This document shows, one piece after another, positions 5,966-24,000 of a stretch of 24,000 nt of DNA. The position numbers and the translations under genes are program-made. The first letter of the stretch is position 1, and each line of letters opens with the position of its first letter. Source of the stretch: an uncultured Methylococcaceae bacterium (GTDB lineage Bacteria > Pseudomonadota > Gammaproteobacteria > Methylococcales > Methylococcaceae). The stretch covers positions 1 through 24,000 of the forward strand of contig CAZOTR010000003.1 of NCBI GenBank assembly GCA_964582755.1, read 5' to 3'. The notes beneath the pieces were generated by a model. That model searched no databases. It was not told the DNA's origin and saw nothing but the letters and a program-made list of their open reading frames with translations.

Positions 5966-6417
5966 CCATCCAGTTGGTTCCTGCCAACGTCCTTCCAGTG
6001 GCTGAAGCGGCGCGTCTTTGTTTGCCCGCGAAAGCGACTTCTCCCTCGCCCTGATGGCACGGCTTGCCGTGTCCTTAATGGCCGCTTCCAACTTGCCAGC
6101 GTGGTATCGCAATCCGCCACCAAGGCTCCCTCTAAATCGCTTGATACTGCGGCAACGCGGTTTTAGGCACCACGCACAGCCAGCCAAGCCGTCGGGCTTG
6201 CTGTGAGGAATAATACCTACGACGCTTCGACGATTGTTTGCAACAGCAGAACACGCCGAACCGCATATGCGGGCCTGTTTTATCGGATTGACAGCACGCC
6301 TTTTCCCTTCGGGGGTCTCGATTCCATCGAGTCGGCATTAACACTTACCCTGCGACAAATCCGCGAACAAATTACTGGATTATCCTGAATTATTATTCCT
6401 GATGTTTATGAGGCCGT

Positions 6418-7296: not shown

Positions 7297-7432
7297 AAAT
7301 GCTTAACCAACAAAACTAATTCGATGGGTAGCGAAAACCCTTGCAAAAGGCTGACAAGGTTTTCGCTGGATAGCGTATCCCTGCGGCAGGATAATCCAGC
7401 CTGCCATTTGATTTGACCACAAGGCGAACGAC

Positions 7433-8776: not shown

Positions 8777-8859
8777 AATTCAGAAAGAGGGCAGGGGAGG
8801 GAACACGTTTTGTCCCGAACCCATTGCACAATCATCAAACCTGACCGAAAGGTATTCAC

Positions 8860-9510: not shown

Positions 9511-10379
9511 TTGGACTGTTCCGTTCCCTACTGCTGATGCTGGCGCTGTTTTCAGCGGCACCGGCTTCGGCCCAACAGTTGGGGCCGAAAGTGGTAGTGA
9601 CTGCCGCACAGGTTGCCGCCGCCATCAGTAATTCCCCGTTGAGTCCCAGCCTCCAGGCTTATGCCGCCGATATTGGCAAGCTGGCGATCAACGTCGAATC
9701 GGGCGGCAATCTGGGTGTTTATAACGGAACCTGCTGCACAGGCGTGTTGCAGGTGAACAAAGGCGGCTTGGCGAAGTATTGCGATTGTACCTCGGAGGAA
9801 TACGCCAACATGTCCCTCCAACAGCAGGTCGATGTGTGGGCAAAACTCACTAACGCCAATGCCAATAACTCGACCGTTCAGGGTTTGATGGGAATGGGTA
9901 GTTTTGGCGAGAAGCCGGTGACCGGGGCGATGGTGCTGTCGTGCATCCAGATCGGGCCGGGTAATTGCGCCAAGACGATTAAGGCGGGGACTTGCGCGAC
10001 CAGCGCCGGATCGGACGGCAACGGCAACAACTTCTGCGACTTCGCGGCCAAGATCAATGGCGCGAGCGGTTCCAGTCCCGTGGCCATAACCGATATCAAC
10101 ACGCCGTCGGGCGCGGCCCCGCCTTTGCTGCCGAGCGCGAATTACCAGTATCCTTCCACCGAGGACGCTTTTCTTACCGGGGCTGGGGTGGATATGTCCC
10201 AGTCGAAAGACCTGGTGTTGTCGGCGTTGTCGGTGGCGATGTTCCTGTGGACTGCCTGGGTGGCGCTGGCCCAGTACGGCTCGTGGCGGCAAGGCCGCAT
10301 CGACTGGATGACCCTGCAAACCAATATCATCGGCTCGACCGTCTTGACGCTGTTGGTTCTCGGCCTGACGCTCGCCTGA
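9507..10379 (+). CDS. Exported, C-terminally membrane-anchored protein, possibly lysozyme/SLT-like
   Basis: Start moved to GTG 9507, which forms a GTGA overlap with the upstream stop. This gives the signal peptide VIGLFRSLLLMLALFSAAPASA|QQ. The segment INVESGGNLGVYNGTCCTGVLQV is reminiscent of the ES...G..Q lytic-transglycosylase motif (weak). It is Cys-rich and has two C-terminal hydrophobic helices. Confidence 0.5.
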   Translation: MIGLFRSLLLMLALFSAAPASAQQLGPKVVVTAAQVAAAISNSPLSPSLQAYAADIGKLAINVESGGNLGVYNGTCCTGVLQVNKGGLAKYCDCTSEEYANMSLQQQVDVWAKLTNANANNSTVQGLMGMGSFGEKPVTGAMVLSCIQIGPGNCAKTIKAGTCATSAGSDGNGNNFCDFAAKINGASGSSPVAITDINTPSGAAPPLLPSANYQYPSTEDAFLTGAGVDMSQSKDLVLSALSVAMFLWTAWVALAQYGSWRQGRIDWMTLQTNIIGSTVLTLLVLGLTLA

Positions 10380-10388
10380 TTTCCAAGC

Positions 10389-10598
10389 GTGGCGGCTGCG
10401 TTTTCAGCCGTACCCTTTGCCGCCGTGTGCCTACGCTTCCGGCGGCGGATTCCCCAGGGAATCCTGTAGGCGTCACAGGCCGCAAGGCCTTTCCACTTCG
10501 GGATCGCCGATCCCTTCTTTTCACCACACCCGACGGGGAAACACAGCCCCGCCGGGGGCTGCGTTTCCCCGTTTTTTCATTCAAAGCGGAGAAACACC
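10389..10598 (+). repeat. Structured ICE leader element, copy B (full, short form)
   Basis: Six successive hairpins, including gccgccg/cggcggc, ggattcc/ggaatcc, aggcc-gcaa-ggcct and gggatc/gatccc. The last is the nested terminal hairpin cggggaaac...gtttccccg + T6, then GGAGAAACACC-ATG of the DUF3577 gene. Confidence 0.85.
10534..10577 (+). terminator. Intrinsic-terminator-like hairpin + T6 inside copy B, 21 nt upstream of the ATG
   Basis: cggggaaac-acagccccgccgggggctgc-gtttccccg followed by tttttt. GC-rich 9-bp outer stem with an inner 7-bp stem. Confidence 0.5.
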
Positions 10599-11051
10599 AT
10601 GAGCGACAACACAAATACCCCATCCAATTATTTTGACTTGCATGTGACCGGCCTGGGCTATCTGAACCGTGTCCGGGAGGTCAAGGTTCCGCGCGGCAAG
10701 CCATTTTTGGCCGCGAGCATCGCGGCCCTGCACGGCGCGTCGGACTCGGTTGAAAAGACTTGGTTCGACGTGCGCGTCTCCGGGCAGGAGGCGCAGAAGG
10801 TGGTCCGGGATCTGATGCCCGACGCCGAAGCCGGCAAATCGGTTTTGGTCGGCTTCAAACTGGGCGACCTGACTGCGGAAACCTTTGTTTACGAGAAAGG
10901 CCCGAAGGCCGGACAAACCGGCGTCAGCCTGAAAGCCCGGCTGCTACGCATCGCCTGGGCCAAGGTTGACGGCAAGACGGTCTACACGGCCCCGAAAGAC
11001 GCCCAGCCCGCCGACGACAGGCAAGGCAGCGCCTTGCCCGAAGCGGCCTGA
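10599..11051 (+). CDS. DUF3577-family SSB-like ICE protein (STY4534-type)
   Basis: 150 aa. YFDLHVTGLGYLNRVREVKVPRGKPFLAASIAALHG ... VSLKARLLRIAWAKVDG matches my memory of the DUF3577/STY4534 family conserved in SPI-7/PAPI-1/ICEclc-type elements. Confidence 0.75.
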   Translation: MSDNTNTPSNYFDLHVTGLGYLNRVREVKVPRGKPFLAASIAALHGASDSVEKTWFDVRVSGQEAQKVVRDLMPDAEAGKSVLVGFKLGDLTAETFVYEKGPKAGQTGVSLKARLLRIAWAKVDGKTVYTAPKDAQPADDRQGSALPEAA

Positions 11052-11180
11052 CCGTTGGCTCCATCTGCCGCCCGCCAGAAACCGCAAGGTTTTCTGGTAG
11101 GCGGCTCCTATAGCCAATTCAATCGCCCAATTCTTCAATCCAAATTTTCAAGCAAGTGTTGTAAACTTTGATCTTCACTC

Positions 11181-11245
11181 GTGGCGACTGCGACTCAGCC
11201 GCACCCTTTGCCTAGGCTTTCCAGGCGTGTCTGCGCTTCCCTGGA
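11181..11245 (+). repeat. Structured ICE leader element, copy C (partial: first two hairpins only)
   Basis: gtggcgactgcgactcagccgcaccctttgcc is near-identical to copies E and F. The second hairpin keeps the loop cgtgtctgcgcttc, but its stem is replaced by ccagg/cctgg. Confidence 0.6.
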
Positions 11246-11474
11246 CGCGATAATCTATCTTCCGTCGATCAACGTAATCTTCGGATGGTCGCGAGCAGAC
11301 GTCCCAAACCGCCCATTGACATGACAGCGGTTCTAACCAGCGTCGGTATGTGAAAAGCCCGCCGCGTTTTCCAATTCGTCCGGGGATTTAAGCGTCCCCG
11401 GACACCCCACAACCCTGACAGGGCACTTGCCCGGTCATGGGAAGTGCCTTGCGTTTTCAGCAAGAGGCAACCCC

Positions 11475-12077
11475 ATGATCAACTTATCAGGAAATCTTTA
11501 CATACGTTCGGTCCACGGCCGCAACGGCGATTTCTCGGTCGGCCGGCTGGTCACCGACATTGGCGAGTTCGTCCTGCGCGACGAGTTCCTTAGGCAGTAC
11601 GGCGAGGGCCATTACCAAGGCGAGTTCGGCATTGCCGAAATCTTCCCGGCCAGCTATGTGGCTGGAGGCCGCATGGTGATCGAAATCCGCGCCACTTTGG
11701 CTTCATTGGCCTTGGCGGCGATTGACGACCTGCCCGGCGGGCAAGCGGAATCCGCAGTATCGGCGGAATCTGCTCTGATTGGCCCGGAAGCCGGGGAAGC
11801 TACGCCCCCATCCAAAGCGACATCCAGGCGCAACAAGCCGGGTGTGGCGAAACCTCCAAACGATGGACAGCCTGCCCAAAACGAGATATTTCCCCCCACG
11901 GGAGATGCCTGCGACGACGGGGCCGACGCTCATTTGTTCGGTGCCTTGTGGCCGCTGGGCGACACCGTGAGGCTGGACACATCGGTCAGCCGGGCCTTGT
12001 TCCGCCAGCAAAAAGAGCGGATGAAGGCGCTGGGGTACACGTTCCAAGCGTCCGGCCAACTGTGGGTTCGGACGTGA
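11475..12077 (+). CDS. DUF3275-family ICE protein
   Basis: Start chosen at ATG 11475 (MINLSGNLYIRSVHGRNGDFSVGRLVTDIGEFVLRDE...YVAGGRMVIEIRA). This N-terminal pattern is what I recall for DUF3275. The upstream part of the track ORF (from 11427) has no RBS support. Confidence 0.65.
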   Translation: MINLSGNLYIRSVHGRNGDFSVGRLVTDIGEFVLRDEFLRQYGEGHYQGEFGIAEIFPASYVAGGRMVIEIRATLASLALAAIDDLPGGQAESAVSAESALIGPEAGEATPPSKATSRRNKPGVAKPPNDGQPAQNEIFPPTGDACDDGADAHLFGALWPLGDTVRLDTSVSRALFRQQKERMKALGYTFQASGQLWVRT

Positions 12078-12127
12078 AATTCCTGGCGCAAGGCTTTGCC
12101 TTGCGCCCGGCAACCGGATTTCCAAGC

Positions 12128-12341
12128 GTGGCGGCTGCGTTTCCAGCCGCACCCTTTGCCGCCGTGTGCCTACGCTGCCGGCGGCGGATTCCCCAAGGAA
12201 TCCTGTAGGCGTCTTAAGGCCTCAAGGCCTTTTTCACTTAGGGATCGCCGATCCCGTCTTTTCACCACACCCAGCGGGAGAACGCATCCCCGCGCCGGGT
12301 CTGCGTTTCTCCGTTTTTTTCATTCCATTCGGAGAAACGCC
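12128..12341 (+). repeat. Structured ICE leader element, copy D (full, short form)
   Basis: Collinear with copy B, including the shared 5' flank gatttccaagc. Terminal hairpin + T7, then GGAGAAACGCC-ATG. Confidence 0.85.
12275..12320 (+). terminator. Intrinsic-terminator-like hairpin + T7 inside copy D, 21 nt upstream of the ATG
   Basis: cgggagaacgca...tgcgtttctccg followed by ttttttt. Confidence 0.5.
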
Positions 12342-13253
12342 ATGAGCAACAAGCACGAAATCACTTATACCCTCGGCTACCTGCACCGGGTCACGGTGGG
12401 GGTTGAAGCCGACAACGGGGAGGCGGCGCTGCGCATCGCCCAACAAGCTTTTGATAACGGTTTGATCTGGGACGACACCCCGGCCATGCCGCTGTTGTAC
12501 GACGATTTTGAGGAGAACGGCGACGGTTTGGACTGGGAAGTCCAGGCGGTCGAGGCGTTTAGCCAGCAAGATCCTTCCGTCAAGGTTCTACAGGCCCAGC
12601 GGAAGGCGTTGGAAGCCTGCCGGGCACTGGTTGCCGCCTATGCAGCCGGCGAAGAGGGCGACGGTTCCGTGTCTTGGGAAGACCTGGACTCCGTGCATGG
12701 GCTTGCCCGGCAAGCCCTGGCTTTGCTGGACGATTCCGCGATGGCATCCGCCCGCGCCACCGGCCCCAAAGCTAGGAAGTTGGCGGAAGCGGATTCGGCG
12801 CGCCCAAGCGATGCGTCTTCACTGCCCACGGTGGCCGATGTCCCACTGCGCCGCATCGTCGAGAGACTGGCGCAGTTGAAGATGTGGGATTTCGACGAAC
12901 GCGACGCCGATGACGACGGAAGCCTGGCCGCCAAGGAAATCGACGACGAAACGGATTGGCTGGACAGCCACATTTTGCTGATGACTTTCATCCGCGATGC
13001 CAGGAGGGCATTGCAGTCCGCCAAGCCTCCGCGTCTGGCCGTTGTGCTGGAGGTCGGAATCGTCCATGCGGTGGTGTCGGACAACGCCGTTGATCTGGCG
13101 GTGGCCGTCATCGACTACGACATCGAAGGTGCCGATGACGATGAATTGTCTTCGGTTCCGCAGGGCGACGGCACCTGCGTGGATGCCGTGGTGGGTTGCT
13201 GGAATGCGACCCCGGCGGCCATCGACCTTGACGCGGTGTTTGCCGCTTCATGA
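12342..13253 (+). CDS. Acidic hypothetical ICE protein
   Basis: Start chosen at ATG 12342 (MSNKHEITYTLGYLHRV...), directly after the conserved GGAGAAACGCC. The 82 codons upstream in the track ORF lie in repeat copy D. Asp/Glu clearly outnumber Lys/Arg by eye. No family recognised. Confidence 0.6.
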   Translation: MSNKHEITYTLGYLHRVTVGVEADNGEAALRIAQQAFDNGLIWDDTPAMPLLYDDFEENGDGLDWEVQAVEAFSQQDPSVKVLQAQRKALEACRALVAAYAAGEEGDGSVSWEDLDSVHGLARQALALLDDSAMASARATGPKARKLAEADSARPSDASSLPTVADVPLRRIVERLAQLKMWDFDERDADDDGSLAAKEIDDETDWLDSHILLMTFIRDARRALQSAKPPRLAVVLEVGIVHAVVSDNAVDLAVAVIDYDIEGADDDELSSVPQGDGTCVDAVVGCWNATPAAIDLDAVFAAS

Positions 13254-13296
13254 AGACCCAGCGTTTGACTGAAACCCATGCCCGGAGGAGGAAACC

Positions 13297-14382
13297 ATGA
13301 ACGCCCGTAAACTCGAAGCAGGCCCAGTCCGCGAGGCGGTGCGGGGGCGCTGGGTGCCGGTGCTGCAAGCATTGGCACCCGAATTGGACGCGGCGCTGGC
13401 TAAACCCGGCAGGCATGTGGCTTGCCCGATGCATGGCGGTCGCGATGGGTTCCGCCTGTTCAAAGATGCGGAAACTTCCGGTGGCGGGATCTGCAACACC
13501 TGCGGCGCGTTTCCCGACGGCTTCAGCCTGTTGCAGTGGCTCAAGGGCTGGAATTTTCCGCAGGCGCTCGGGGCGGTGGATGCAGCCATCGGCGGCGTGG
13601 CTTTGACCCGCGTGGCTTTGTCAGAACCGGCGTTGCCGGCCAAGACTCAACCCCGCAAGACTGCCTCCGAAGACGGCCAAATCCGTCGGCGTCTGGCGGA
13701 GACCTGGGCGCAATCCGAGCATTGGCGGGATGCCCTGTCCCAACCGCTGCGGGACTACCTGGCCCATCGCGGTTTGGACACCGGCATTTTGCAAGGCGTG
13801 GAGGCCATCCGCTTCCATCCGGGCTTGCGCTACCACGACGAGGACGGCCACTACGGCGGCACGTTTCCGGTCATGCTGGCTCGGGTGTCCGACGCGCACG
13901 GCAAACCGGTGACACTCCACCGCACTTACCTGACCGAAGCGGGCAGGAAAGCGTCGGTGGAAAACCCGAAGCGAATGATGCCGGTGCCATCGGATCAACC
14001 GGTCTTGGGCGGCGCTATTCGCTTAGGCGTTGCCGAGCCGGTCATCGATTTGGCCGAAGGCATCGAAACCGCCTTGGCCGTGCGCCAGGCAACCGGGCTT
14101 CCGGTGTGGAGCGCGGTCAGCGCCACGCTGTTGGCGGGCTTCGATCCACCGCCCGGAACCCACAAGCTGCGGATCTGGTGCGACCGGGACCGCAAGGGCG
14201 TAGGCGAGGAGGCGGCGCAGAAACTGGCGGAGCGTCTCGCTGAGAGGGGCATTCCAACCGAGTTGCTGATTCCGCCCGAGGCGATGCTTCGGGATGGCAA
14301 AAGCGTTGACTGGTTGGATGTCCTCAACGAGTACGGTTCTGCGGTTTTCCCGCTGTCGCCAAATCGGTGGGCGGCGGCATAA
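13297..14382 (+). CDS. Primase-like protein: P4-alpha-type zinc ribbon + Toprim domain
   Basis: 361 aa. RBS GGAGGAGGA. Zn-binding pattern HVACPMHGG ... ICNTCG. Toprim Glu in IDLAEGIETALAV and an acidic cluster in WCDRDRKGVGEEAAQ. No helicase domain is attached. Confidence 0.75.
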   Translation: MNARKLEAGPVREAVRGRWVPVLQALAPELDAALAKPGRHVACPMHGGRDGFRLFKDAETSGGGICNTCGAFPDGFSLLQWLKGWNFPQALGAVDAAIGGVALTRVALSEPALPAKTQPRKTASEDGQIRRRLAETWAQSEHWRDALSQPLRDYLAHRGLDTGILQGVEAIRFHPGLRYHDEDGHYGGTFPVMLARVSDAHGKPVTLHRTYLTEAGRKASVENPKRMMPVPSDQPVLGGAIRLGVAEPVIDLAEGIETALAVRQATGLPVWSAVSATLLAGFDPPPGTHKLRIWCDRDRKGVGEEAAQKLAERLAERGIPTELLIPPEAMLRDGKSVDWLDVLNEYGSAVFPLSPNRWAAA

Positions 14383-14429
14383 GGGCAGGTTCTGACTTGG
14401 CCTGAGAGTGTTGTTTTGTTGTTCGACCC

Positions 14430-14488
14430 ATCCGGGGAAATTCCCCGGACTGGGGGGTTCTCCGGACTTTAACCTGAGGAGAAACCCC
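14430..14488 (+). repeat. Structured ICE leader element, copy H (terminal-hairpin module only, no T-tract)
   Basis: ccggggaaattccccggactggggggttctccgg aligns with the terminal module of copy F (ccggggaaacctttccccggcgggacaggtttctccgg). It is followed by GAGGAGAAACCCC-ATG. Confidence 0.55.
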
Positions 14489-15565
14489 ATGCAGATAGAG
14501 ATAGTAAAACTTTTCCGGGTGGCGGATGTGTTCGGCCTTTACGCCGACGCCTTCGTCCAAGACCGGCAGTCCGGCCAGTTGATCTTCGCCTCCTTCTGGG
14601 GGCGTGACACGACTATCCAGGAACTGCTGGCGCGGCTTACTTTGTCGTCATCGGAAGGCGGTCTGGCCTCGCTGGACTTCAACCCGTGCGACAACCCGGA
14701 CAACGGGCTGAACGTGTCCATCGGCGATCCGAACCGGCTCGACAAGTTGACTGGCAGGATGCCCGCCGACAATTTGTTCGGCGCGGTGGCGCAGTTGTGG
14801 CTCTATGACCGCAAGGCCGTGGAACCCGATCATGCCAGCCGTCGGGCTTTGTTGCTGACCGGCGAAGACGTGTCCGACGGGCAATGCGGCAGCGCACCTG
14901 AGGACGAAAAGGTCTGGGCGCTGTTCAAGACGGTATCCCATCTGCCATTGCTCGACCACTGGCGGCAGGTATTGATTTCGGTCGCATTGTCCTGTGGCTG
15001 GCTGCGGATACACCCAGGCTTCCAGGTCAACGCGATTGAGTTGGATCTGGGCGTGGAGGACTACGAAGCCACGGTCAGCGAGTTGATCCGGCAAGGGCGC
15101 TTGACCCTCGAAGCGGGTGAGCCTCAAGCCGCACGGGAAGCCGATCCATTGCCCACGGTAATGTCGGCGTCAACCGATGAGAATCCGGTAACCACAGGGC
15201 GTTTGTCGGCGGAGCAGCTTGAGGATGGCTTGGCGCAATTCTACGGAACCCAACAATGGTTTCCGCATTGGCTCGTCAAGAACATGCTCTACACGGAAGG
15301 CGTCCAGTTTTTCGCCGAACAAGGCGGGGAGCAGGGGGCTTTCTGGTTTTTGGATATTGTGGCGACGGAATATTTTCAACTGCAACGGCAGGAGCCGTTC
15401 ATGCTGATCAAGCTGACCTCCAAGGACAAAAAAGCCACCGTCCAGGTGGAAAACGGCAATGGCCGGGTGTTGAAGGAAAAGAAGATCGAATACACGGATC
15501 TTCAGCCCGGCGTCTGGAAGTTTTACCTGACGGATGATGTTTTGCTGTTGCCCGGCGAGTATTGA
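14489..15565 (+). CDS. Hypothetical ICE protein with a DUF6876-like C-terminal domain
   Basis: Start chosen at ATG 14489 (MQIEIVKLF...) after the RBS GAGGAGA. The C-terminal ...YTEGVQFFAEQGGEQGAFWFLDIVATEYF...GVWKFYLTDDVLLLPGEY resembles the DUF6876 family as I recall it. Confidence 0.6.
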   Translation: MQIEIVKLFRVADVFGLYADAFVQDRQSGQLIFASFWGRDTTIQELLARLTLSSSEGGLASLDFNPCDNPDNGLNVSIGDPNRLDKLTGRMPADNLFGAVAQLWLYDRKAVEPDHASRRALLLTGEDVSDGQCGSAPEDEKVWALFKTVSHLPLLDHWRQVLISVALSCGWLRIHPGFQVNAIELDLGVEDYEATVSELIRQGRLTLEAGEPQAAREADPLPTVMSASTDENPVTTGRLSAEQLEDGLAQFYGTQQWFPHWLVKNMLYTEGVQFFAEQGGEQGAFWFLDIVATEYFQLQRQEPFMLIKLTSKDKKATVQVENGNGRVLKEKKIEYTDLQPGVWKFYLTDDVLLLPGEY

Positions 15566-15583
15566 TATTCGCCCCAGGCGGCA

Positions 15584-15855
15584 CCCCCCAGTGATTGGGG
15601 GGCTTCTTTAAGCCACCCCGACCGGGGCGGCTTAAAGAAGTCTCCGAGCAACAACGTGGCGACTGCGTTCTCAGCCGCACCCTTAGCCGTCGTGTGCCTA
15701 CACGTCCGACGGCGGATGCCGTTGGTGTCCCGTAGGCGTCACAGGCGATTAGCCTCTTCACTTCGGAACCGACGGTTCCATTTTTCCATAACCCGACGGG
15801 GAAGCCTTTCCCCTAAGGGGCAAGCTTCGCCGTTTTTTCCAATCGGAGAAGCGCC
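15584..15855 (+). repeat. Structured ICE leader element, copy E (full, long form)
   Basis: An extra 5' module: C6-agtgatt-G6 hairpin plus a 12-bp perfect stem cttctttaagcc/ggcttaaagaag. Then the common core from gtggcgactgcg (15656). Then the terminal hairpin + T6 and GGAGAAGCGCC-ATG. Confidence 0.85.
15794..15838 (+). terminator. Intrinsic-terminator-like hairpin + T6 inside copy E, 17 nt upstream of the ATG
   Basis: cgacggggaagc...gcttcgccg followed by tttttt. Confidence 0.5.
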
Positions 15856-16269
15856 ATGAACCAACATCAACATCAGCCGACATCCGGCCTGATTTACCCC
15901 TGTGACCGCTGCGGCCAGGCCAACCAGATCGTCAACCAATGCGGCTGCGATCCGGCCAACCTGCCCACTTTTGTCCAAGCGGACGACCGTTTAGTCGAGT
16001 CACTGCTCGTATTGACTGAGTTCGTCAACAACGTTAAGAACTCCAAAGCCCGGGTGGTTGCCAGCATTCTGGTCGCGCTCTGGAATGAAGACCGCGTAGT
16101 CCCCCATCTGCAATGGGTGGCGATGCTGGATCCTGTCACTTTCGAGCACGTCCTCAATGTGCTGCGGCTGGTGGCTACCGGGATACCCCTCGAAAGATTC
16201 TTGCAAGGAGGATCGGACGTTTTTGAGGGGATCATTCGGAGATATAACTTCAAGCAGAGCATCCCGTGA
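15856..16269 (+). CDS. Hypothetical ICE protein
   Basis: 137 aa. Conserved leader/RBS context directly upstream. N-terminal CDRCG...NQCGC Cys pairs. No family recognised. Confidence 0.55.
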   Translation: MNQHQHQPTSGLIYPCDRCGQANQIVNQCGCDPANLPTFVQADDRLVESLLVLTEFVNNVKNSKARVVASILVALWNEDRVVPHLQWVAMLDPVTFEHVLNVLRLVATGIPLERFLQGGSDVFEGIIRRYNFKQSIP

Positions 16270-16372
16270 ATGCGTAGGCCCAGCCTGCGCGTCATGGGAG
16301 AAATCCGGCCAGCCGGTTCGTGACTGGCGGGCTGCTTCGCTGACTTAAGGATTGGCCTCCAATTCTGATAAA

Positions 16373-16508
16373 CCGCCGCGTGCCTGCGTTGTCGGCGGCC
16401 ACCCGACAAGGGTGGGGCAGGCGTCTTTTTACTTACCTTTCGGGGAAACCTTCCCCGGCAGGGCGTGGTTTCTCCGCGAGGATCATTCCAATCCGACAGG
16501 AGAACACC
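16373..16508 (+). repeat. Structured ICE leader element, copy G (degenerate: hairpin 2 + terminal module, no T-tract)
   Basis: ccgccg-cgtgcctgcgttgt-cggcgg corresponds to hairpin 2. cggggaaaccttccccggcagggcgtggtttctccg corresponds to the terminal module. Then AGGAGAACACC-ATG. Confidence 0.55.
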
Positions 16509-17345
16509 ATGCGCCAGAACCAATTGGTTTCAAAATTTAGACACTTGAGCGGGTTCGCCAAGGCCAACGCGCCGTTGACCGACGATGAAATCCGCCGTGC
16601 GGCCCCCTCGATCTTTGCGGCCAATCCGCACGGGTCGCGCTCGGAGCGCTATACCCTGATCCCGACCATCGACGTGCTGACGGCACTGCGCAAAGAAGGG
16701 TTTCAGCCCTTCATGGTCGTGCAGGCCGGGGTGCGCAATGAAGACCGCTTGGACTTCACCAAGCACATGATCCGGCTGCGCCACGAAAGCCGGATCAATG
16801 GCGCGGAGGCCAACGAGGTGATCCTCGTCAACTCCCACGACGGGTCGAGTTCCTACCAGATGCTCGGCGGCGTTTACCGCTTCGTCTGCCACAACGGGCT
16901 GATCTGCGGCGACACGGTTGAAGACCTGCGGGTCAAGCACCGTGGCGACGTGGTGGGCCAGGTCATCGAGGGGGCTTACACCATCTTGAAGGACTTCGAC
17001 CGGGTGGACGCTTCCAAGGGCGAGATGAAAGCTTTGGAACTTGACGATGGCGAGCAAAGAGCCTTCGCCCGTGCCGCTTTGGCGATGCGCTACGAGGAAG
17101 GCAAGGAAGTGCCGGTCACCGAAGACCAGGTGTTGCGACTGCATCGACGTGAGGACGACGCCGACAACCTCTGGACCACGCTGAATGTAGTCCAGGAGAA
17201 TCTGGTGCGGGGCGGACTGCGAGGCCGCAATGCCAAGGGCCGCAGGGTCACAACCCGGCCTGTCCAAGGCATCGACCAGAACGTGCAATTGAACCGGGGC
17301 CTTTGGGTGCTGGCCGAGGAGATGCGCAAGCTCAAGGCGGCTTGA
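16509..17345 (+). CDS. DUF932 (DUF945)-family protein
   Basis: Start chosen at ATG 16509. PLTDDEIRRAAPSIFAANPHGSRSERYTLIPTIDVLTALRKEGFQPFMVVQ is the characteristic N-terminal pattern of DUF932 proteins common on ICEs and plasmids. Confidence 0.8.
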   Translation: MRQNQLVSKFRHLSGFAKANAPLTDDEIRRAAPSIFAANPHGSRSERYTLIPTIDVLTALRKEGFQPFMVVQAGVRNEDRLDFTKHMIRLRHESRINGAEANEVILVNSHDGSSSYQMLGGVYRFVCHNGLICGDTVEDLRVKHRGDVVGQVIEGAYTILKDFDRVDASKGEMKALELDDGEQRAFARAALAMRYEEGKEVPVTEDQVLRLHRREDDADNLWTTLNVVQENLVRGGLRGRNAKGRRVTTRPVQGIDQNVQLNRGLWVLAEEMRKLKAA

Positions 17346-17438
17346 TACCCGAAAGGGAATGGCTCACTAACCCGCGAGGGGCATCAGCCCTCGCGGCGCC
17401 TGGATGCCCCTCGTTTTCCAATCACGAGGAGCATCACC

Positions 17439-18545
17439 ATGGCGTTAATGTTTCAACGGCTGGCGAGAAATTTCGCCGCGAACGGGTATTACCCTACCGA
17501 CGAGTCCACCATCGAACGGATATTGTCGATGCTGCGGCCCAGCCCACAGGGGACGATGAAACTCATCGACCCCTGCGCGGGCGAAGGGGTGGCGCTGGCT
17601 GAATGCAAGCACCATCTGGGCGCGGATCGCGCTGAGGCCTTCGGCGTGGAATTACATAAAGAGCGGGCCTGGAATGCGAAGGAAATCCTGGATCGTGTCA
17701 TCCACGGCGATTTCCAGGAGACCACGATCAGCTACCGCCGGTTCGGGTTGCTCTGGTTCAACCCGCCTTACGGCGATCTGGTCAGCGACCAGGGTTCCAC
17801 AGGCGACGACGGCGGCTCGGGGCGGCAACGCTTCGAAAAACTGTTTTACCACCGCGCCTACCGGCTGTTGCAGCCGGGCGGCGTCATGGTCTTGATAGTG
17901 CCGCATTATTCCCTAGACAAGGAGTATGCGGGCTGGATCGCGGGCTATTTTGAACGGGTCGAGGCGTTTCTGTCGCCCGGACAGCGTTTCAAGCAGGCCG
18001 TGGTGGTCGGGGTCAGGGCGAATGCCTGGCAATCCGGCGACGCGGCCAAGCGGGTGCGGGAACGGCTGCAAAGCCTGTCCCGTGGCGAAGCCGATACCCT
18101 GCCTGAAACCTGGGACGGCGAGCCTTACGAAATCCCCGAGGACAAGGGGCAGGCGGTCGAATTCACCGCCAAGCGTCTGGATCATGCCCAGCTTGCGGAG
18201 GAAATCCGCCGCCATCCCTGCCTGTGGCCGCAATTTGAATTGCACTTGGGCCGGGTGGGCAAGACCCAGCGTCGGCCCTTGCGGGCGCTCTCCCGCTGGC
18301 ATCTGGCCTTGTCGCTTGCGGCAGGCCAAGTTTCCGGGGTCGTCCGTTCCAATGACGGCAGCCGGGTGTACGTGGTCAAAGGCGACACCTTCAAGGGCAA
18401 GACCGTGAAGACCACGTTCGAGGAGGCCGAATCCGGGCATTTCGTCGAGATACGCACGGCGACGGATGTGTTCAAGCCGGTGATCCGGGCCTTGGACTTC
18501 ACACCGGGCAGCGAAACCTTCGGGCAGGCTTTGGTCATCCGATGA
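17439..18545 (+). CDS. SAM-dependent N6-adenine DNA methyltransferase-like protein (orphan)
   Basis: 368 aa. Motif I: LIDPCAGEGVAL. Motif IV: LLWFNPPYG (NPPY). No restriction-endonuclease gene is recognisable next to it. Confidence 0.75.
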   Translation: MALMFQRLARNFAANGYYPTDESTIERILSMLRPSPQGTMKLIDPCAGEGVALAECKHHLGADRAEAFGVELHKERAWNAKEILDRVIHGDFQETTISYRRFGLLWFNPPYGDLVSDQGSTGDDGGSGRQRFEKLFYHRAYRLLQPGGVMVLIVPHYSLDKEYAGWIAGYFERVEAFLSPGQRFKQAVVVGVRANAWQSGDAAKRVRERLQSLSRGEADTLPETWDGEPYEIPEDKGQAVEFTAKRLDHAQLAEEIRRHPCLWPQFELHLGRVGKTQRRPLRALSRWHLALSLAAGQVSGVVRSNDGSRVYVVKGDTFKGKTVKTTFEEAESGHFVEIRTATDVFKPVIRALDFTPGSETFGQALVIR

Positions 18546-18705
18546 CAGGGGCAGGCCGGAGGGATTGCGGAAAAGTTTGAGTTTCAACCCTCGCTGGCAT
18601 CGCCAGTGATTTTAACCACCGCCTTGCGGAGACGAACATGCTCTCCGCAAGGGGTAGCCGTGTTTCGTTTCCCAGGGCTTTTTTTTATCCTTGAGGAGAA
18701 CTGAT

Positions 18706-20490
18706 ATGGCTACAGAAACCACGTTGAAAGTGAACCAGGAGCGGCTGGTCAAAAATCTGCGCTTCAGCTTTACCGACGCCACCACGGTGTTGGGCGAGCT
18801 AATGCAGAACGCCCGCCGGGCCGGTGCGACGAAGGTCGTGATCGACTTTAACCCTGAGTCCAAGACCCTGGTGGTTTGCGATGACGGCTGCGGGATTGAC
18901 TGTTTTCAGACGCTGCTGACCGTGGCGGAATCGGGTTGGGACGCCGAGCTGGTCGAGCGTGAACATCCGTTTGGCATCGGCTTTTTGTCGGCGCTGTTCG
19001 CTTGCGAACACCTGACGGTGGAAAGCCGGGGCCAGCGGATCGCCATGCCGACGGCGGACATCCTGTCCTTCCAGCCGGTGGCGGTCACGCCGGTCATCCG
19101 CTGCCCGGTGGAACCCCGCTTCGAGGGCGACGCCTGCGGCTGCGGGTCGGACAATCTGACCGGCCCGGACGACGAAGGCGTTTACGATTGTTACGACTGC
19201 GGCTTGTTTTTCACCGCCGAAGCCATCGGCCAAGGCGAACGCTGGAACGGCGTGACGACCGTCAAGCTGGACGGCTTCAAGCCCGAACCCGGCAAGGTGG
19301 CAGGCCGCTTGGCGGCTTTGGCCGAGGGTTTTCCCATTCCGGTGGTGTTCAACGGCGAGGCACTCAAGCGGCCTTGGGCGCTGGACTCGGGACGCGAGTT
19401 CATCCAAACCGGGGTTGGCCAGGTTTACCTGAAAGGGTTTGGCGCCGGCGAGGCGTGGACGGCATCGGTGGAGGATCTGCATATCTACTTGCAAGGCTTG
19501 CCGGTTTACCAAACGCCGCGCAGTTGGCACCGGGGGGACAACAGCAATGTGATCCACCTGGATTCCTCGCTGTTCCACGCGAGGCTTCCCGACCGTGACA
19601 AACTGGTCGATGAAGACAAGGTGGTCAAGCAGGTGGCTGATGCCGTCAGGCAGGAGGTCATTCTGAGAATCCAGGCGTTGGCGGACAGCCTTGAACCCGA
19701 GGCGTTTGCCAAAGGCTATGACACACTTAGGAAATGGGATTGCCTTGAGTTGTTGAACGACATTCCGGTCATTCCCCGGCAAGTGCTGTCCTTCATCCAG
19801 AGCTATCCCATCAAGGAAGGTGCTTATCCGGTGAATCTCGACCAGGCGGAAACCGTCACCCGCGAGGATGTGGAGACTGGCAAGGTCTCCATCGCCCAAT
19901 TGGAATGTTTCAGTGAGGAGAACGCGCCGCACTGGATGTACGCTTGGCACAAGGGGATGCTGGTATATGACCATCCTTTGCACAGCGGCCATTGGCTGCA
20001 CCAGCATATGGTCGAGATGGACGGGCAGCCCGTCCAGGTGGAGATCGTCGGCGAGACCCACCGGGCCAATTTCGAAGGCCAGTGGGTGTGCGGCGACGCG
20101 GTGTTTTGCGAGAAGTACCGCCTGACCTTCGATGGCGATACGGTCGATATCGAAGGCGATTCGATCTATCTGGAGGACGATGGGCTGTTCGTGGTGCCGA
20201 AGTGTGACGCCTCCGGCTCTGTGGTGAACCAAGCCTGTTCGTACTTTGACGAGAACGACAGCTACAACCAGTCGGTCAAGGACGAGGACGACTGGGCGTT
20301 TGAGAAGTTCGTCGTGGCCAACACCTCGGCGAATCCGGCGAAAGCCCTGGAACGCCTGCTGCCATCTTTTGCGGGCTGCCCCAAGGTATTCGGCAGGCGC
20401 TTCACGCTGGAACTGGATTCGTCCGGGAAAGTCGTGTCGGTGGAGGAATCGTTGGACGGCAAGCTTGCAGGGCAAGGGATGGAGGGATAA
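18706..20490 (+). CDS. GHKL-superfamily (MutL/MORC/Hsp90-like Bergerat fold) ATPase with a Cys-rich insert
   Basis: Start chosen at ATG 18706 after the RBS GAGGAGA. N box: LGELMQNARRAGA. G1 box: VCDDGCGID. G2-like: HPFGIGFLSALF. The insert ...DACGCGSDNL...VYDCYDCGLFF (CxC ... CxxC) is zinc-ribbon-like. The large C-terminal region is not recognised. Confidence 0.7.
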   Translation: MATETTLKVNQERLVKNLRFSFTDATTVLGELMQNARRAGATKVVIDFNPESKTLVVCDDGCGIDCFQTLLTVAESGWDAELVEREHPFGIGFLSALFACEHLTVESRGQRIAMPTADILSFQPVAVTPVIRCPVEPRFEGDACGCGSDNLTGPDDEGVYDCYDCGLFFTAEAIGQGERWNGVTTVKLDGFKPEPGKVAGRLAALAEGFPIPVVFNGEALKRPWALDSGREFIQTGVGQVYLKGFGAGEAWTASVEDLHIYLQGLPVYQTPRSWHRGDNSNVIHLDSSLFHARLPDRDKLVDEDKVVKQVADAVRQEVILRIQALADSLEPEAFAKGYDTLRKWDCLELLNDIPVIPRQVLSFIQSYPIKEGAYPVNLDQAETVTREDVETGKVSIAQLECFSEENAPHWMYAWHKGMLVYDHPLHSGHWLHQHMVEMDGQPVQVEIVGETHRANFEGQWVCGDAVFCEKYRLTFDGDTVDIEGDSIYLEDDGLFVVPKCDASGSVVNQACSYFDENDSYNQSVKDEDDWAFEKFVVANTSANPAKALERLLPSFAGCPKVFGRRFTLELDSSGKVVSVEESLDGKLAGQGMEG

Positions 20491-20493
20491 GCC

Positions 20494-21000
20494 ATGTACC
20501 TGCATGACTTTGACGTGGCGTTTTGTGTGAAGTCCAACGTGGCGGAATGGGAGGATCTGCCGCCCTCTGTCGTGCTGTCCGTCTTGAGAAGACGGGTGGC
20601 GGAATTGACCGAGGACGAGGTTCTCGATGCGGTTGGATTCCTAAACACAATCCCGCTGGATGCCCCTGAAACCGGGGACGGAATGCCGGATGCCCATCGG
20701 GGCGGGCCGGGTGACAATCCGCCCCAGCCCAGATACCTGGCGGGAACCCGGATCTTGTCGATCTTCGGCGAATCCGGCGATACCGACGAGGAAATCGACG
20801 CGCAGACCGGCCCCCATGCCGTGGGAACCATCAGCCAAGTCCTCCCGGAGCAGGAAAACTGCTACGTGGTAGAGTTCCTTGGCGGGATATTCGCCTTCCT
20901 CAGCGATGAGGAGCTTGCGGATAGCCATTACTACCAGGTTTTGGACGGTGCTTCCGACGCGGTTGCCGTCCCCGAAACCGAGGAAGGAGAAGCGCCATGA
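20494..21000 (+). CDS. Very acidic hypothetical protein
   Basis: 168 aa. Starts 4 nt after the GHKL stop. Asp/Glu-rich with few basic residues. No family recognised. Confidence 0.5.
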   Translation: MYLHDFDVAFCVKSNVAEWEDLPPSVVLSVLRRRVAELTEDEVLDAVGFLNTIPLDAPETGDGMPDAHRGGPGDNPPQPRYLAGTRILSIFGESGDTDEEIDAQTGPHAVGTISQVLPEQENCYVVEFLGGIFAFLSDEELADSHYYQVLDGASDAVAVPETEEGEAP

Positions 21001-21248
21001 TCCGCGACGTGTTTGTGGTGATCTACGAGCATCGGCACGGCATGGACGTGGCGGCCCATGCCTCACACGGGCAGGCCTACGCCGCCGTGGCTGAAATTGC
21101 GCGAACCTGGTGGCAGGAACGCGCCGACCGGGCGGCACCGGAGGATTGTGCCGCGCTGTCCGACGAGGAAGTGGTCAATGCTTATTTCGACGGGCACGAA
21201 AGCGAGTTCTACAGCATTGAGAACTCAAAAGTCGATTTTCCCGATTGA
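20997..21248 (+). CDS. Small hypothetical protein
   Basis: 83 aa. ATGA overlap with the upstream ORF, suggesting translational coupling. No family recognised. Confidence 0.45.
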   Translation: MIRDVFVVIYEHRHGMDVAAHASHGQAYAAVAEIARTWWQERADRAAPEDCAALSDEEVVNAYFDGHESEFYSIENSKVDFPD

Positions 21249-21284
21249 ACGAGGCATCCACCCTCATCCAAAACTAGCTTTACG

Positions 21285-21553
21285 CCCCCCTTGCGGGGGG
21301 CTTCTTTAAGCGCCCCGGCGCGGGGTGCTTAAAGAAGCCTCAGAAAAAAACCGTGGCGACTGCGTTCTCAGCCGCACCCTTTGCTGCCGTGTGCCTACAC
21401 TGCCGGCGGCGGATACCTTGGTATCCCGTAGGCGTCATAGGCTGGAAGCCTTTCCATTTCGGGATCGACGATCCCTCTTTTTACCACCCGACCGGGGAAA
21501 CCTTTCCCCGGCGGGACAGGTTTCTCCGGTTTTTTTTGCATTGGAGAAACACC
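21285..21553 (+). repeat. Structured ICE leader element, copy F (full, long form)
   Basis: C6-ttgc-G6 hairpin and cttctttaagc/gcttaaagaag stem. Common core from gtggcgactgcg (21353). Terminal hairpin + T8. GGAGAAACACC-ATG. Confidence 0.85.
21493..21538 (+). terminator. Intrinsic-terminator-like hairpin + T8 inside copy F, 15 nt upstream of the ATG
   Basis: ccggggaaacct...aggtttctccgg (one G-U pair) followed by tttttttt. Confidence 0.5.
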
Positions 21554-21961
21554 ATGAACCCGCAACACCTTCAACTTTACCGGGAACTGCGCCAACAAGG
21601 GCTTGCCTCGCGCTACGCGCTGGCTTGCTCACGGGCGCGGATGGCCCTCGAATCCAAATGCGCGGCGACAGGCTTTGAATGGCGGGAAGACCGCCATGGC
21701 CTGCTGTACGCCTGCTGGCAAGAGGAGGGCTTTGACTTGATGGCCGCCGTCGTCATCGACGAGGACGGCTGGTGCGTAAGCGGCGTGGATTTCATCGGCC
21801 GGTTTACCAGCCGCTGGGAATCCGGCGCGATCCGCCACCACCAAGGCGACCGGAATGCCCACAAGTGGTTTATTCCGGCGAACCTGGGCGACCCCAAGGA
21901 GGAATACCGCCGCGCCTGTGCCTTCGGGCGCGACTGGTGGGTGCGACGTGAAGTCGTGTAA
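21554..21961 (+). CDS. Hypothetical ICE ORF, apparently interrupted at 21940/21941 by a group II intron
   Basis: Start chosen at ATG 21554 after the conserved leader. The reading frame runs 7 codons into the inferred intron (…GRDWW|VRREVV*), so the annotated C-terminus is probably not native. The 3' exon would lie beyond the window. Confidence 0.5.
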   Translation: MNPQHLQLYRELRQQGLASRYALACSRARMALESKCAATGFEWREDRHGLLYACWQEEGFDLMAAVVIDEDGWCVSGVDFIGRFTSRWESGAIRHHQGDRNAHKWFIPANLGDPKEEYRRACAFGRDWWVRREVV

Positions 21962-24000
21962 GTAATTGTTTCAGCTATGACAATAGCAGCGGAACCCGCT
22001 TTCCCTGGGCGGTAGCCTACCGGCACGGGCGGGACCAGCAATGGTCCGGTTCGAAGCTGCCGGGACAATGTAACCCATCCCGAAAGGGTAAGCCAGAAAC
22101 CGCGAGGGAGTAAGGCGTATCTGCCAGCGCAAGGCGGAAGGGGGCTAGGCTGGATGGCAAGGCTAACAAATGTGAACTGTCGATAAACTCCGTCACGTGC
22201 AACAAGCCAAATGCGCTGTCAGGCTTGAACCAAAAAGGTAAGGTGGTTGGCTAACCCAGATCCACCATCTGGGTTGCAGGGGCAAAGAAACCACCGGAGG
22301 AAAGACAGAGCCTAAACCATTCCCGTTACTTACACGGAACACGGAAACCCCGTTCCTCCGCCTGTGACCGGCAAGGAAAACCCCGTTCGGCGGGTATAGG
22401 TCGAAACATCTGAAGGGACGAAAGCCACAGGCAGGCCGCCCGTGAGGAAGGCTGAGGGAGGGCGGGAATAGGATGGCGGAAAAAGCGAATGCCGTCCTGT
22501 AATGGGGCGGATAGGGGTTGAAGCCGCAAGGCGACATCACCCTGGCCGGTAACGGCGCAGACGTCCGCCGAGTCTCTCTTTACGAGATAACTTTTAGAAC
22601 CTTCACAAGAGGGGATGCAAATGACTACGCAAGCACTTTGTTGCGCGGGTGCGCCCTCTGGCGAACCGTGGCACTGGCACAAAACAAAATGGGCTAAGTG
22701 TCACCGGGAAGTTAGGAGGCTGCAAGCGCGTATCGTAAAGGCAACGCAGGAAGGCCGCTGGGGCAAGGTGAAAGCTTTGCAATGGTTGCTGACCCACTCG
22801 CATAGCGGCAAGGCAATCGCCGTGAAGCGGGTGACCGAAAACACTGGCAAGAAGACCCCCGGAGTCGATGGGCAGACATGGCCCACGCCGGAGGCCAAAT
22901 CTCTAGCCGTGTTGTCACTCAAAAGGCGCGGTTACAGACCGCTCCCGCTGAGAAGGGTGTACATCCCCAAAAGCAACGGCAAGGAACGTCCGCTGGGCAT
23001 ACCGACGATGAAAGACAGGGCGATGCAGGCGCTAAACCTGTTGGCCTTGGAACCCATCTCGGAAAATACGGCGGACAGGAACTCATACGGGTTCAGGCCG
23101 GAAAGATCCACGGCAGACGCAAGGGAACAGTGCTTTAACACACTATCAAAACCTTGGTCCGCTCAATGGATTTTAGAAGGCGATATAAAAGGCTGCTTCG
23201 ACAACATAAGCCACCAATGGATGCTCGAACACATACCGACGGACAGGGTTGTGCTAGAGAAATGGCTGAAGGCAGGATACGTCTACAAAAACGGACTCTT
23301 CCCGAACGAGGCGGGGACGCCGCAGGGCGGGATCATTTCGCCAACCCTGGCGAATATGACGCTTGACGGGCTGGAATCGAAACTTGAAGAAACATTCGGC
23401 AAGAGAGAATCGAGGAAAGCCAAAAGCAACCAAGTCAACTTGGTTCGATATGCGGACGACTTCATCATTACCGCTAGGACGAAAGAACTGCTGGAGGATG
23501 AAGTCAAACCTCTAGTTATTGAATTTCTCAAGGAACGGGGCCTAACCCTCTCGGAAGAAAAGACTAGGGTAACGCACGTCAGCAAGGGGTTCGATTTTCT
23601 CGGATGGAATTGTAGGAAATACGACGGCAAGTTGTTAATCAAGCCGTCCAAGAAGAACTCGAAAGTGTTCCTCGACGGAATCCGGGATGTGATGAAGGGC
23701 AACAAACAGGCTAGACAGGAAAACCTTATTGGACTGCTCAACCCAAAAATTCGAGGATGGGCAAACTACCATAAAGGCGCAGTCGCCAAGGAAACCTTCA
23801 GCAAAGTTGACAAAGAGATTTGGAAAACACTGTGGCAATGGGCCGAACGCCGACACCCAAACAAAGGAAAACGATGGATCAAAGTTAGATATTTCAGGAC
23901 GGAGAGGAATCGAAACTGGGTATTTGCGGCAAGCGTCAAAACAGCGGAAGGGGAAACACGGACGGTGAGGCTGGTCAAGGCCAGCGACACCAAAATCCAG
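21941..24000 (+). mobile_element. Group II intron, 5' portion (domains I-III and domain IV with ORF); 3' end outside the window
   Basis: Begins GTGCGAC (5' GUGYG consensus). About 670 nt of ORF-free, hairpin-rich sequence follow, then an RT/maturase ORF. The hairpin aacccaga-TCCACCA-tctgggtt (22253-22275) has a loop CCACCA complementary to the exon TGGTGG immediately 5' of the junction (EBS1/IBS1). Confidence 0.85.
22615..24000 (+). CDS. Group II intron-encoded reverse transcriptase/maturase (partial, open to the window end)
   Basis: Translated by hand; absent from the ORF track because no stop codon falls in the window. M(Q)MTTQ...RRVYIPKSNGKERPLGIPTMKDRAMQ, SYGFRPERS, ILEGDIKGCFDNISH, GTPQGGIISPTLANM, VRYADDFII (YADD), GFDFLGW, LLNPKIRGWANYH (X/maturase domain). 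AGAGGGG RBS-like sequence upstream of ATG 22615; a second in-frame ATG at 22621. Confidence 0.9.
   Translation, partial: MQMTTQALCCAGAPSGEPWHWHKTKWAKCHREVRRLQARIVKATQEGRWGKVKALQWLLTHSHSGKAIAVKRVTENTGKKTPGVDGQTWPTPEAKSLAVLSLKRRGYRPLPLRRVYIPKSNGKERPLGIPTMKDRAMQALNLLALEPISENTADRNSYGFRPERSTADAREQCFNTLSKPWSAQWILEGDIKGCFDNISHQWMLEHIPTDRVVLEKWLKAGYVYKNGLFPNEAGTPQGGIISPTLANMTLDGLESKLEETFGKRESRKAKSNQVNLVRYADDFIITARTKELLEDEVKPLVIEFLKERGLTLSEEKTRVTHVSKGFDFLGWNCRKYDGKLLIKPSKKNSKVFLDGIRDVMKGNKQARQENLIGLLNPKIRGWANYHKGAVAKETFSKVDKEIWKTLWQWAERRHPNKGKRWIKVRYFRTERNRNWVFAASVKTAEGETRTVRLVKASDTKIQ

Follow-up and report, generated by a model that had tools for sequence, protein, structure and literature searches.

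ICEs (integrative conjugative elements) belonging to the pKLC102, PAPI-1, ICEclc and SPI-7 kind spread virulence, catabolic and resistance genes, and the control of their accessory genes is poorly known. In the gonococcal genetic island, a DUF3577 gene (yef) lies within an ssbB/topB/parAB cluster (PMC3334931). For plasmids, Samuel et al. described leading regions as enriched in methyltransferases, single-stranded DNA-binding (SSB)-type proteins and many small uncharacterised proteins, with uniform gene orientation, and the Frpo promoter as a long hairpin of the transferred (template) strand bearing the -35, -10 and UP elements (PMC11541004). Here we analysed the first 24 kb (24,000 nucleotides, called the window throughout) of an 86-kb metagenome contig from an uncultured Methylococcaceae bacterium, in which a block of genes (10599-21961) starting with a DUF3577 gene carries a repeated structured element, hereafter the leader, ahead of many of its genes. 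A sequence-only reading of this DNA had proposed that the segment 10599-21248 may be the functional equivalent of a conjugative leading region, with structured elements acting as single-stranded DNA (ssDNA) promoters. The block is a new member of a known ICE module, and the repeated leader appears to be an undescribed structured RNA.

Distribution and structure of the leader

Leader copies in the window were located by repeat finding, nhmmer and a covariance model (CM). The repeated element is about 215 nt long, and the window holds four full copies of it together with degenerate, partial and half copies (Table 1), which bears out the earlier remark that a structured element precedes many of the genes. 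Copy 1 begins 6 nt beyond the stop codon of the upstream open reading frame (ORF), this distance ranging from 6 to 47 nt for copies 1 and 2. These two copies are 95% identical over 100 nt (10375-10474 versus 12114-12213) ahead of unrelated genes, which indicates a recent duplication or gene conversion between leaders; the remaining copies are 64-66% identical to copies 1 and 2. The primase-like gene at 13297-14382 has no leader and starts 43 nt beyond the preceding stop codon. Copies 3 and 4 are themselves preceded by extra nested hairpin modules (15584-15640 and 21284-21340, 79% identical to each other), each composed of a GC hairpin with a T-rich tail and then an inverted repeat, CTTCTTTAAG ... 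CTTAAAGAAG, around a second GC hairpin.

Relatives of the block were collected by scanning one genome per species with the DUF3577 protein, which gave 50 loci, mostly from Gammaproteobacteria, including Methylococcales, Sedimenticola and symbiont lineages, and Woeseiaceae. Iterated nhmmer found 127 leader copies in these related loci and the window, all of them (127/127) on the gene strand. A full copy ending at the start codon stands ahead of 42 DUF3577 genes, and other copies precede RadC, SNF2, methyltransferase, DUF6876, DUF6573 and ArdC genes as well as ORFs without assigned function. The leader site directly before the DUF3577 start codon is kept although the proteins are only 50-65% identical between species, and no leader copy was found by nhmmer in the roughly 9.5 kb upstream of DUF3577 in the loci holding that flank. 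In pKLC102 (locus L058), the 3' module proximal to the Shine-Dalgarno (SD) sequence precedes DUF3577 and three small neighbouring ORFs (18821-18902, 19294-19364, 19924-20003 and 20779-20852); the 5' pseudoknot domain was looked for in pKLC102 and was absent. Furthermore, the far end of the block in the Methylococcales ICEs has an orphan 5' half immediately behind the SNF2 helicase (L003, 17800-17899; L004, 18321-18418; L048, 17934-17991), mirroring the orphan half at position 5759 of the window. A search of the whole window with Rfam 15 at gathering score retrieved the group II intron only, and no matches were obtained at E <= 1 over 5000-22000; single leader copies searched at E <= 10 gave chance hairpin matches only, and no Rfam family fits the leader.

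The 5' domain is built of hairpin P1, whose CUGCG loop hardly varies, of hairpins P2 and P3, and of a 6-bp pseudoknot that joins the P2 loop to a stretch after P3. Covariation was computed on 37 distinct leader sequences, in which 94.3% of the cells are paired, versus 30-52% with the partners slid. Compensatory change on both sides was observed for 25 of the 29 pairs, a level of covariation reached by none of 500 shuffles, and the pseudoknot is retained with 13 and 5 compensatory cells. The element thus has a conserved secondary structure that is backed by covariation. A pseudoknot upstream of an SSB gene is also known from the leader of T4 gene 32.

The same data bear on the idea that the elements are selfish or neutral repeats, resembling repetitive extragenic palindromes (REP) or miniature inverted-repeat transposable elements (MITE), next to ordinary terminators and ribosome-binding sites and with no shared regulatory role. 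Such repeats could account for several copies per locus, some of them truncated or orphaned (5759-5928 in the window, and the 5' halves after SNF2 in L003, L004 and L048), and for near-identical pairs inside one genome. They would account poorly for compensatory changes that preserve four helices including the pseudoknot, for the strictness of strand and position (127/127) and for the fixed position before the DUF3577 start codon in the face of 50-65% protein identity, and no terminal inverted repeats or target duplications were seen. Because position is strict and the changes are compensatory, we regard this explanation as scarcely credible.

The 3' module offers several pairings with shared arms. 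In helix A, a 5' arm pairs with a nearby local partner; in helix C, the same 5' arm pairs with the anti-SD arm to form a long hairpin; and in helix B, the anti-SD arm pairs with the SD/AUG region. With a local partner of the 5' arm as the third possibility, there are three helices in competition (A, B and C). In copy 2, the anti-SD arm GCGUUUCUCCG is perfectly complementary to CGGAGAAACGC. The cognate anti-SD:SD duplex has a mean energy of -14.0 kcal/mol, versus -10.0 for non-cognate and -6.9 for shuffled pairs, and the rival duplex of 5' arm and 3' arm has a mean of -15.0 kcal/mol. Covariation, moreover, links the SD/AUG region of the gene that follows to the 3' arm of the last hairpin. In the predicted folds, the SD is paired at a probability of 0.75-1.0 in most leaders, and the predicted ground state is A + B in most copies. 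All four full copies of the window have six to eight consecutive U behind the terminator-like hairpin C, and of 62 full copies taken together, 43 have a U-run there. The leader of the methyltransferase gene is predicted to fold as a diverged, SD-sequestering version of the 3' module, and that of the GHKL gene is a diverged version with both SD and AUG paired in the predicted fold. On these predicted pairings, the 3' module has the make-up of an expression platform with mutually exclusive helices.

Strand and nature of the folded element

The pairing of the 3' module with the SD/AUG region is the strongest argument for RNA. The wobble pairs point in the same direction: on covarying pairs we counted 79 cells of sense-strand G.U versus 20 of A.C, and as A.C on the + strand is G.U on the template strand, this ratio favours folding of the sense strand, with the reservation that the CM-fitted alignment may tilt the count to G.U and that the sequences are related and not independent. 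When both mismatch types were scored alike, the ratio was 58 to 30 in helix B and 74 to 29 in helix C. Folding of copy 1 yielded z = -6.6 as + RNA and z = -5.3 as - DNA versus shuffles, and is not decisive because both strands are far more stable than the shuffles.

These results can be set against the view that the block is a true leading region beside the origin of transfer (oriT), with Frpo-like ssDNA promoters that fold on the T strand and allow anti-defence and establishment genes to be transcribed before complementary-strand synthesis. Its content overlaps the families enriched in leading regions and its orientation is uniform (PMC11541004), an ArdC gene stands behind a leader in the relative L005, the elements fold strongly as - strand DNA (z = -5.3), and the comparison of sense and antisense energies is neutral. 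The elements themselves are unlike Frpo: no -35/-10-like hexamer pairs were found in any leader copy on either strand, several short hairpins and a pseudoknot take the place of one long promoter-mimicking hairpin, the wobble pairs favour the sense strand (79 to 20) and not the template strand on which Frpo forms, and the covariation of the 3' arm with SD/AUG is a feature of the RNA level. In addition, the equivalent block of pKLC102 is 44-49 kb from mobH, and the whole backbone of that element is one-directional. The missing -35/-10 hexamers, the pseudoknotted multi-hairpin fold, the sense-strand wobble and the SD/AUG pairing speak against the proposal of ssDNA promoters. What stands of the leading-region reading is a conserved mobile module with overlapping content (methyltransferase, primase, RadC downstream, ArdC in a relative); its likeness to Frpo does not stand, and the distance from mobH in pKLC102 lends no support to its place. 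We consider a true leading region with Frpo-like promoters very unlikely.

Folding of the + strand as DNA is another matter, as the sense-strand wobble suits + DNA equally well as RNA. The elements would then be ssi priming signals, possibly for the primase encoded in the block, or attC-like sites for the nearby tyrosine recombinase in an integron-like array. For the DUF1874 motif, Weinberg et al. (2017) discussed a like arrangement as a possible unusual attC (PMC5737381), which serves as a precedent. The single element per cassette in successive intergenic regions, the shuffling of cassette order between ICEs, the tyrosine-recombinase gene always near the array, the occurrence of copies 1 and 2, at 95% identity, ahead of unrelated genes and the primase gene inside the block would all fit. 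However, the element stops at SD/AUG, its 3' arm covaries with that region, and a sense-strand U-run follows the hairpin. The recombinase is co-oriented and of the PF12834/PF12835 type of small plasmids, not IntI, and there is no single imperfect hairpin with R and L boxes. Furthermore, pKLC102 retains the SD-proximal module alone, which is hard to reconcile with a priming or recombination site. We therefore judge folded + strand ssDNA to be unlikely. An integron cassette array as such does not agree with the co-oriented PF12834/PF12835 recombinase, the 5' pseudoknotted elements and the sense-strand wobble.

Like the reservation on the wobble count, several observations weigh against an RNA leader. 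Helix A shows no wobble bias (24 versus 26), and the minimum free energy of the whole element does not discriminate, the sense strand being the more stable in 22 of 43 cases in a comparison confounded by composition. The predicted ground state varies, being helix C in copy 1 and A + B, by 10.6 kcal/mol, in copy 2, and about 30% of the full copies carry no U-run. In comparison with riboswitch and attenuator leaders, no ligand, binding protein or sensing factor is assigned to the leader. The establishment or anti-defence role that the proteins may have is argued from gene content.

Proposed mode of action

The analysis shows the structure, strand, position and alternative pairings of the leader and the synteny of the block; beyond this, we infer that the leader regulates expression, that it senses a factor, that one of its conformers is the on state, and, from gene content, that the gene products aid establishment. 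Most cassettes have a copy of their own, which would be a structured intercistronic leader of the mRNA. In the full copies, helix C with its U-run looks like an intrinsic terminator, helix B would hide the SD/AUG from the ribosome, and the 5' domain, three hairpins tied by a pseudoknot, could be the factor-sensing part that biases the choice of helix. The cassettes might in this way be gated jointly after the start of transcription, through attenuation, through changing access to the ribosome-binding site or through both, and be made only in one state of the element, e.g. in a transfer-competent donor or a fresh transconjugant. With moderate confidence, we take the element to be an intercistronic mRNA leader that controls termination and/or ribosome access, the pseudoknot domain being the likely sensor, in a member of the known ICE module.

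A wider proposal is tentative and in our view rather doubtful: the leader would represent an undescribed class of cis-regulatory RNA, with a pseudoknotted sensor and a three-way switch (anti-anti-SD, anti-SD/terminator, SD), forming a common gate on every exchangeable cassette of pKLC102/ICEclc-type accessory modules and answering a factor, encoded by the element or the host, that signals transfer competence or entry into a new host, and the leaders would also supply the homology for cassette shuffling. If a shared RNA switch exists, it would give a handle on the timing of the putative SSB-like, primase, methyltransferase, ArdC and RadC-type genes of these ICEs. The leader could then also serve as a sequence tag for further establishment or anti-defence cassettes, any ORF behind a leader being a candidate. 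Moreover, scans for leading regions call for caution: a structured element before each gene of a one-directional conjugative block is insufficient for calling an ssDNA promoter, and the strand of the wobble pairs together with the pairing of the ribosome-binding site can separate an ssDNA promoter from an RNA leader.

The block as an ICE module

By Pfam, the block 10599-21961 encodes proteins with DUF3577, DUF3275, DUF6876, DUF7673 and DUF932 domains as well as a Zn-ribbon/Toprim primase, a methyltransferase of the DUF6094 family and a GHKL ATPase, and by isoelectric point (pI) five of its proteins are acidic (Table 1). The DUF3577 protein matches NCBIfam NF040584, the STY4534 family ICE replication protein, with 164 bits versus a cutoff of 160. 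Across the 50 loci, DUF3577, DUF3275, DUF6876, DUF6094, RadC, SNF2 and the Integrase_1-type recombinase recur on a single strand in shuffled order. The upstream flank of the relatives holds genes for parB-like, DUF2857, SSB and topoisomerase III (TopB) proteins and for a regulator of the AcaB family, and the downstream flank the TraD coupling protein. Downstream of the block, the + strand of the source contig carries the group II intron, small ORFs and the genes for RadC and for an SNF2 helicase of 845 aa (L051, 15876-18413), and cargo genes on the - strand come after these. Both the methyltransferase (17439) and the SNF2 helicase lie downstream of DUF3577 on the + strand, an order that matches pKLC102.

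The only relative compared that is complete and annotated, pKLC102 from P. aeruginosa (MOBH, MPF_G), is arranged as topA, pil cluster, DUF3577, small ORFs, DUF6094, DEAD helicase, cargo, type IV secretion system (T4SS), cargo, mobH and int, with its backbone entirely on one strand. Between mobH (99.9 kb) and the equivalent block (42-51 kb) there are 49 kb in one direction and about 44 kb in the other, across int and the record ends. Of the MPF_G families, the window contains only a TIGR03758/DUF3262-like domain (35 bits, under the cutoff of 42.7). The DUF3577 family, the shared gene set and the order in pKLC102 thus place the block in a known, conserved ICE module; this is the accessory, DNA-processing or establishment-type module of pKLC102/PAPI-1/ICEclc/SPI-7-type ICEs (MOBH relaxase, MPF_G secretion system). 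It is assembled from exchangeable gene cassettes, i.e. the set in the window, RadC and SNF2 downstream, and ArdC and DUF6573 in relatives.

Table 1. Genes and leader elements of the window, with their positions, strand and the basis of assignment.
Feature	Position	Strand	Basis or remark
Orphan 5' (pseudoknot) half of leader; no gene abutting	5759-5928	+	nhmmer; CM 86.9 bits over 5759-5846
Tyrosine-recombinase-like protein, Phage_int_SAM_2 + Integrase_1	6418-7296	+	Pfam; synteny: always near block in relatives
HerA/FtsK-like ATPase	7433-8776	+	Pfam, NCBIfam, gene calls
Secreted 216-aa protein	8860-9510	+	Pfam, NCBIfam, gene calls
DUF3262/TIGR03758-like membrane protein	9507-10379	+	Pfam, NCBIfam, gene calls
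Full leader copy 1: P1, P2, P3, pseudoknot, P4, P5, switch hairpin with U-run, SD	10385-10598	+	Repeats, CM, folding
DUF3577 / STY4534-family ICE replication protein	10599-11051	+	Pfam 168 bits; NCBIfam 164 bits
Weak, interrupted 5' domain copy of leader, upstream of DUF3275	11177-11305	+	CM 34.7 bits, E = 6e-5
DUF3275 protein	11472-12077	+	Pfam 176 bits
Full leader copy 2	12124-12341	+	Repeats, CM, folding
Acidic 303-aa protein, pI 4.2, without family	12342-13253	+	From a small hypothetical-protein family
Stand-alone primase-like protein, Zn_Ribbon_Prim + DUF7146 + Toprim_3	13297-14382	+	Pfam
3' module only (hairpin A + anti-SD:SD pairing), without U-run, ahead of DUF6876 gene	14416-14488	+	nhmmer; folding
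Acidic protein, pI 4.6, DUF6876 in C-terminal part only	14489-15565	+	Pfam; pI
Full leader copy 3	15652-15855	+	Repeats, CM
DUF7673 protein	15856-16269	+	Pfam
Degenerate full leader copy: weak 5' domain (16341-16427) + 3' module	16341-16502	+	CM 29.7 bits; nhmmer
DUF932 protein	16503-17345	+	Pfam 181 bits; phrog_12094
DUF6094-family S-adenosylmethionine (SAM)-dependent methyltransferase	17439-18545	+	Pfam; PADLOC mad2-like domain
Acidic GHKL (HATPase_c_3) ATPase, 594 aa, pI 4.6	18706-20490	+	Pfam; pI
Acidic 168-aa ORF, pI 4.05, without family	20494-21000	+	Translationally coupled to 20997-21248
Acidic 83-aa ORF, pI 4.6, without family	20997-21248	+	Translationally coupled to 20494-21000
Full leader copy 4	21349-21553	+	Repeats, CM
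135-aa ORF without family, final gene ahead of group II intron	21554-21961	+	Pfam, gene calls

The gene content listed in the sequence-only reading was recovered. DUF3577, DUF3275, the Zn-ribbon/Toprim primase, DUF932 and the methyltransferase were confirmed by Pfam, and the several acidic proteins correspond to five strongly acidic products (pI 4.05-4.6). The block is one-directional as claimed, all called genes being on the + strand: this holds for the window from the operon at 805-5182, which resembles a cyclic-oligonucleotide-based antiphage signalling system (CBASS), through to its end, and also for every long ORF matching a called gene from 6418 to the window end. Because the CBASS genes are on the + strand too, this orientation is not peculiar to 10599-21248; one-directionality is a property of the whole ICE backbone and not of a leading region. 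The description of DUF3577 as SSB-like found no support, as the protein has no Pfam SSB match and NCBIfam assigns it to the STY4534 family instead; a DUF3577 profile search of the PDB likewise found no SSB. No useful match came from PDB sequence searches with the DUF3577 protein (as single sequence and as profile), with DUF932 or with the GHKL protein, and PHROGs and PADLOC searches of the proteins gave generic domain matches only. No Pfam family matched ORFs 12342-13253, 20494-21000, 20997-21248 and 21554-21961. Near-identical DNA was not found in E. coli genomes, and plasmids gave only short pieces of DUF932 and of the intron.

The methyltransferase had been called an orphan, which is right for the family, whose relatives have no partner gene, and less certain here, where the GHKL gene comes next. 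The N-terminus of the GHKL protein has a weak resemblance to restriction enzymes of the HgiDII/BbrUII type and to MutL. The relatives are without this partner gene, and the pair at 17439-20490 may be an inserted restriction-modification-like or defence cassette.

No relaxase or oriT was found in the window or in the 10 kb downstream, and the window proteins have no Pfam match to SSB, PsiB, ArdA or KlcA. Of the family-less ORFs suspected of anti-defence functions, two were checked by fold (12342-13253 and 20494-21000) and neither had an ArdA-, Ocr- or PsiB-like match. The predicted structure of ORF 12342-13253, with a predicted local distance difference test score (pLDDT) of 72.7, has no PDB or BFVD match at E <= 0.001; that of ORF 20494-21000 (pLDDT 60) shows only a generic SH3-like C-terminal barrel and has no PDB or BFVD match at the same threshold. 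In the Methylococcales relative L005, from 11735 onward, a leader copy stands directly before an ArdC-type anti-restriction gene (ArdcN and a zincin-like peptidase). As the gene content resembles that of leading regions and ArdC lies behind a leader in this relative, an establishment or anti-defence role is plausible for some cassettes.

Flanking regions

The + strand operon at 805-5182 is a complete type II CBASS-like operon with a patatin phospholipase, a DncV-like CD-NTase, an E1/E2 protein (ThiF + UQ_con) and a JAB deubiquitinase-like protein, and it is probably cargo of the ICE. It is followed at 5183-6417 by 1.2 kb without a convincing gene, with negative GC skew, the orphan leader 5' half (5759-5928) and a perfect 16-bp inverted repeat at 5650-5684. 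Lying between the CBASS cargo and the Integrase_1-type gene, this stretch could be a junction, an attachment (att) site or an oriT-type region. Homologues of the recombinase 6418-7296 with about 50% identity are encoded on many small plasmids of 5-15 kb, mostly typed as non-mobilizable, which suggests a resolvase-like role rather than that of the ICE integrase. For the same protein, the idea of an MpsA-like atypical relaxase (PMC6414798) may be raised, and a resolvase-type role seems at least as likely. At the other end, a group II intron (21995-24000, running past the window; RF02012, 118 bits over 21995-22145) starts 34 nt after the stop codon of ORF 21554-21961. Its protein (RVT_N/RVT_1/GIIM/HNH) begins near 22621 and runs off the window, and a 70-80-nt piece of the intron is similar to ltrA-type introns on Salmonella plasmids.

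Comparison with known systems

With the leading regions of F and ColIb-P9, the block shares its uniform orientation, the presence of a methyltransferase, a primase, small acidic and putatively SSB-type proteins, and structured elements that stand ahead of single genes (PMC11541004). It differs from them in that the elements are pseudoknotted and multi-hairpin instead of a long hairpin, are devoid of -35, -10 and UP elements, have their wobble pairs on the sense strand and pair with the SD; in addition, the window has no psiB, ardA or Pfam SSB, and in pKLC102 the block, 44-49 kb from mobH, is apparently not adjacent to oriT. Integron attC arrays and the DUF1874 motif resemble the block in having one structured element per promoterless co-oriented cassette, a shuffled order and a tyrosine recombinase nearby. 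In integrons, however, IntI is divergent from the array and the attC sites are single hairpins at the 3' ends of cassettes that fold on the bottom strand, whereas in the window the element, with the SD inside it, lies 5' of the ORF and folds on the sense strand, a recombinase unlike IntI shares the orientation of the array, and the fold greatly exceeds an attC hairpin in complexity.

The MOBH/MPF_G ICE module matches the block in its series of STY4534/DUF3577, small ORFs, DUF6094 methyltransferase and DEAD/SNF2 helicase, and in the orientation of the backbone. In contrast to those ICEs, the block of the window is preceded by the Integrase_1 gene, the HerA-like ATPase and the DUF3262 gene and not by topB or the pil cluster, with the CBASS cargo ahead of these upstream genes, and it adds the primase, DUF932, DUF7673, GHKL and family-less ORF cassettes. 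Its full-length pseudoknotted leaders likewise set it apart from pKLC102, which has the 3' module only. From riboswitch and attenuator leaders, the leader differs in matching no Rfam family and in being repeated ahead of many unrelated genes of one mobile-element module; it shares with them a structured, pseudoknotted 5' domain followed by mutually exclusive helices with a terminator-like hairpin and the SD, on the sense strand before the start codon.

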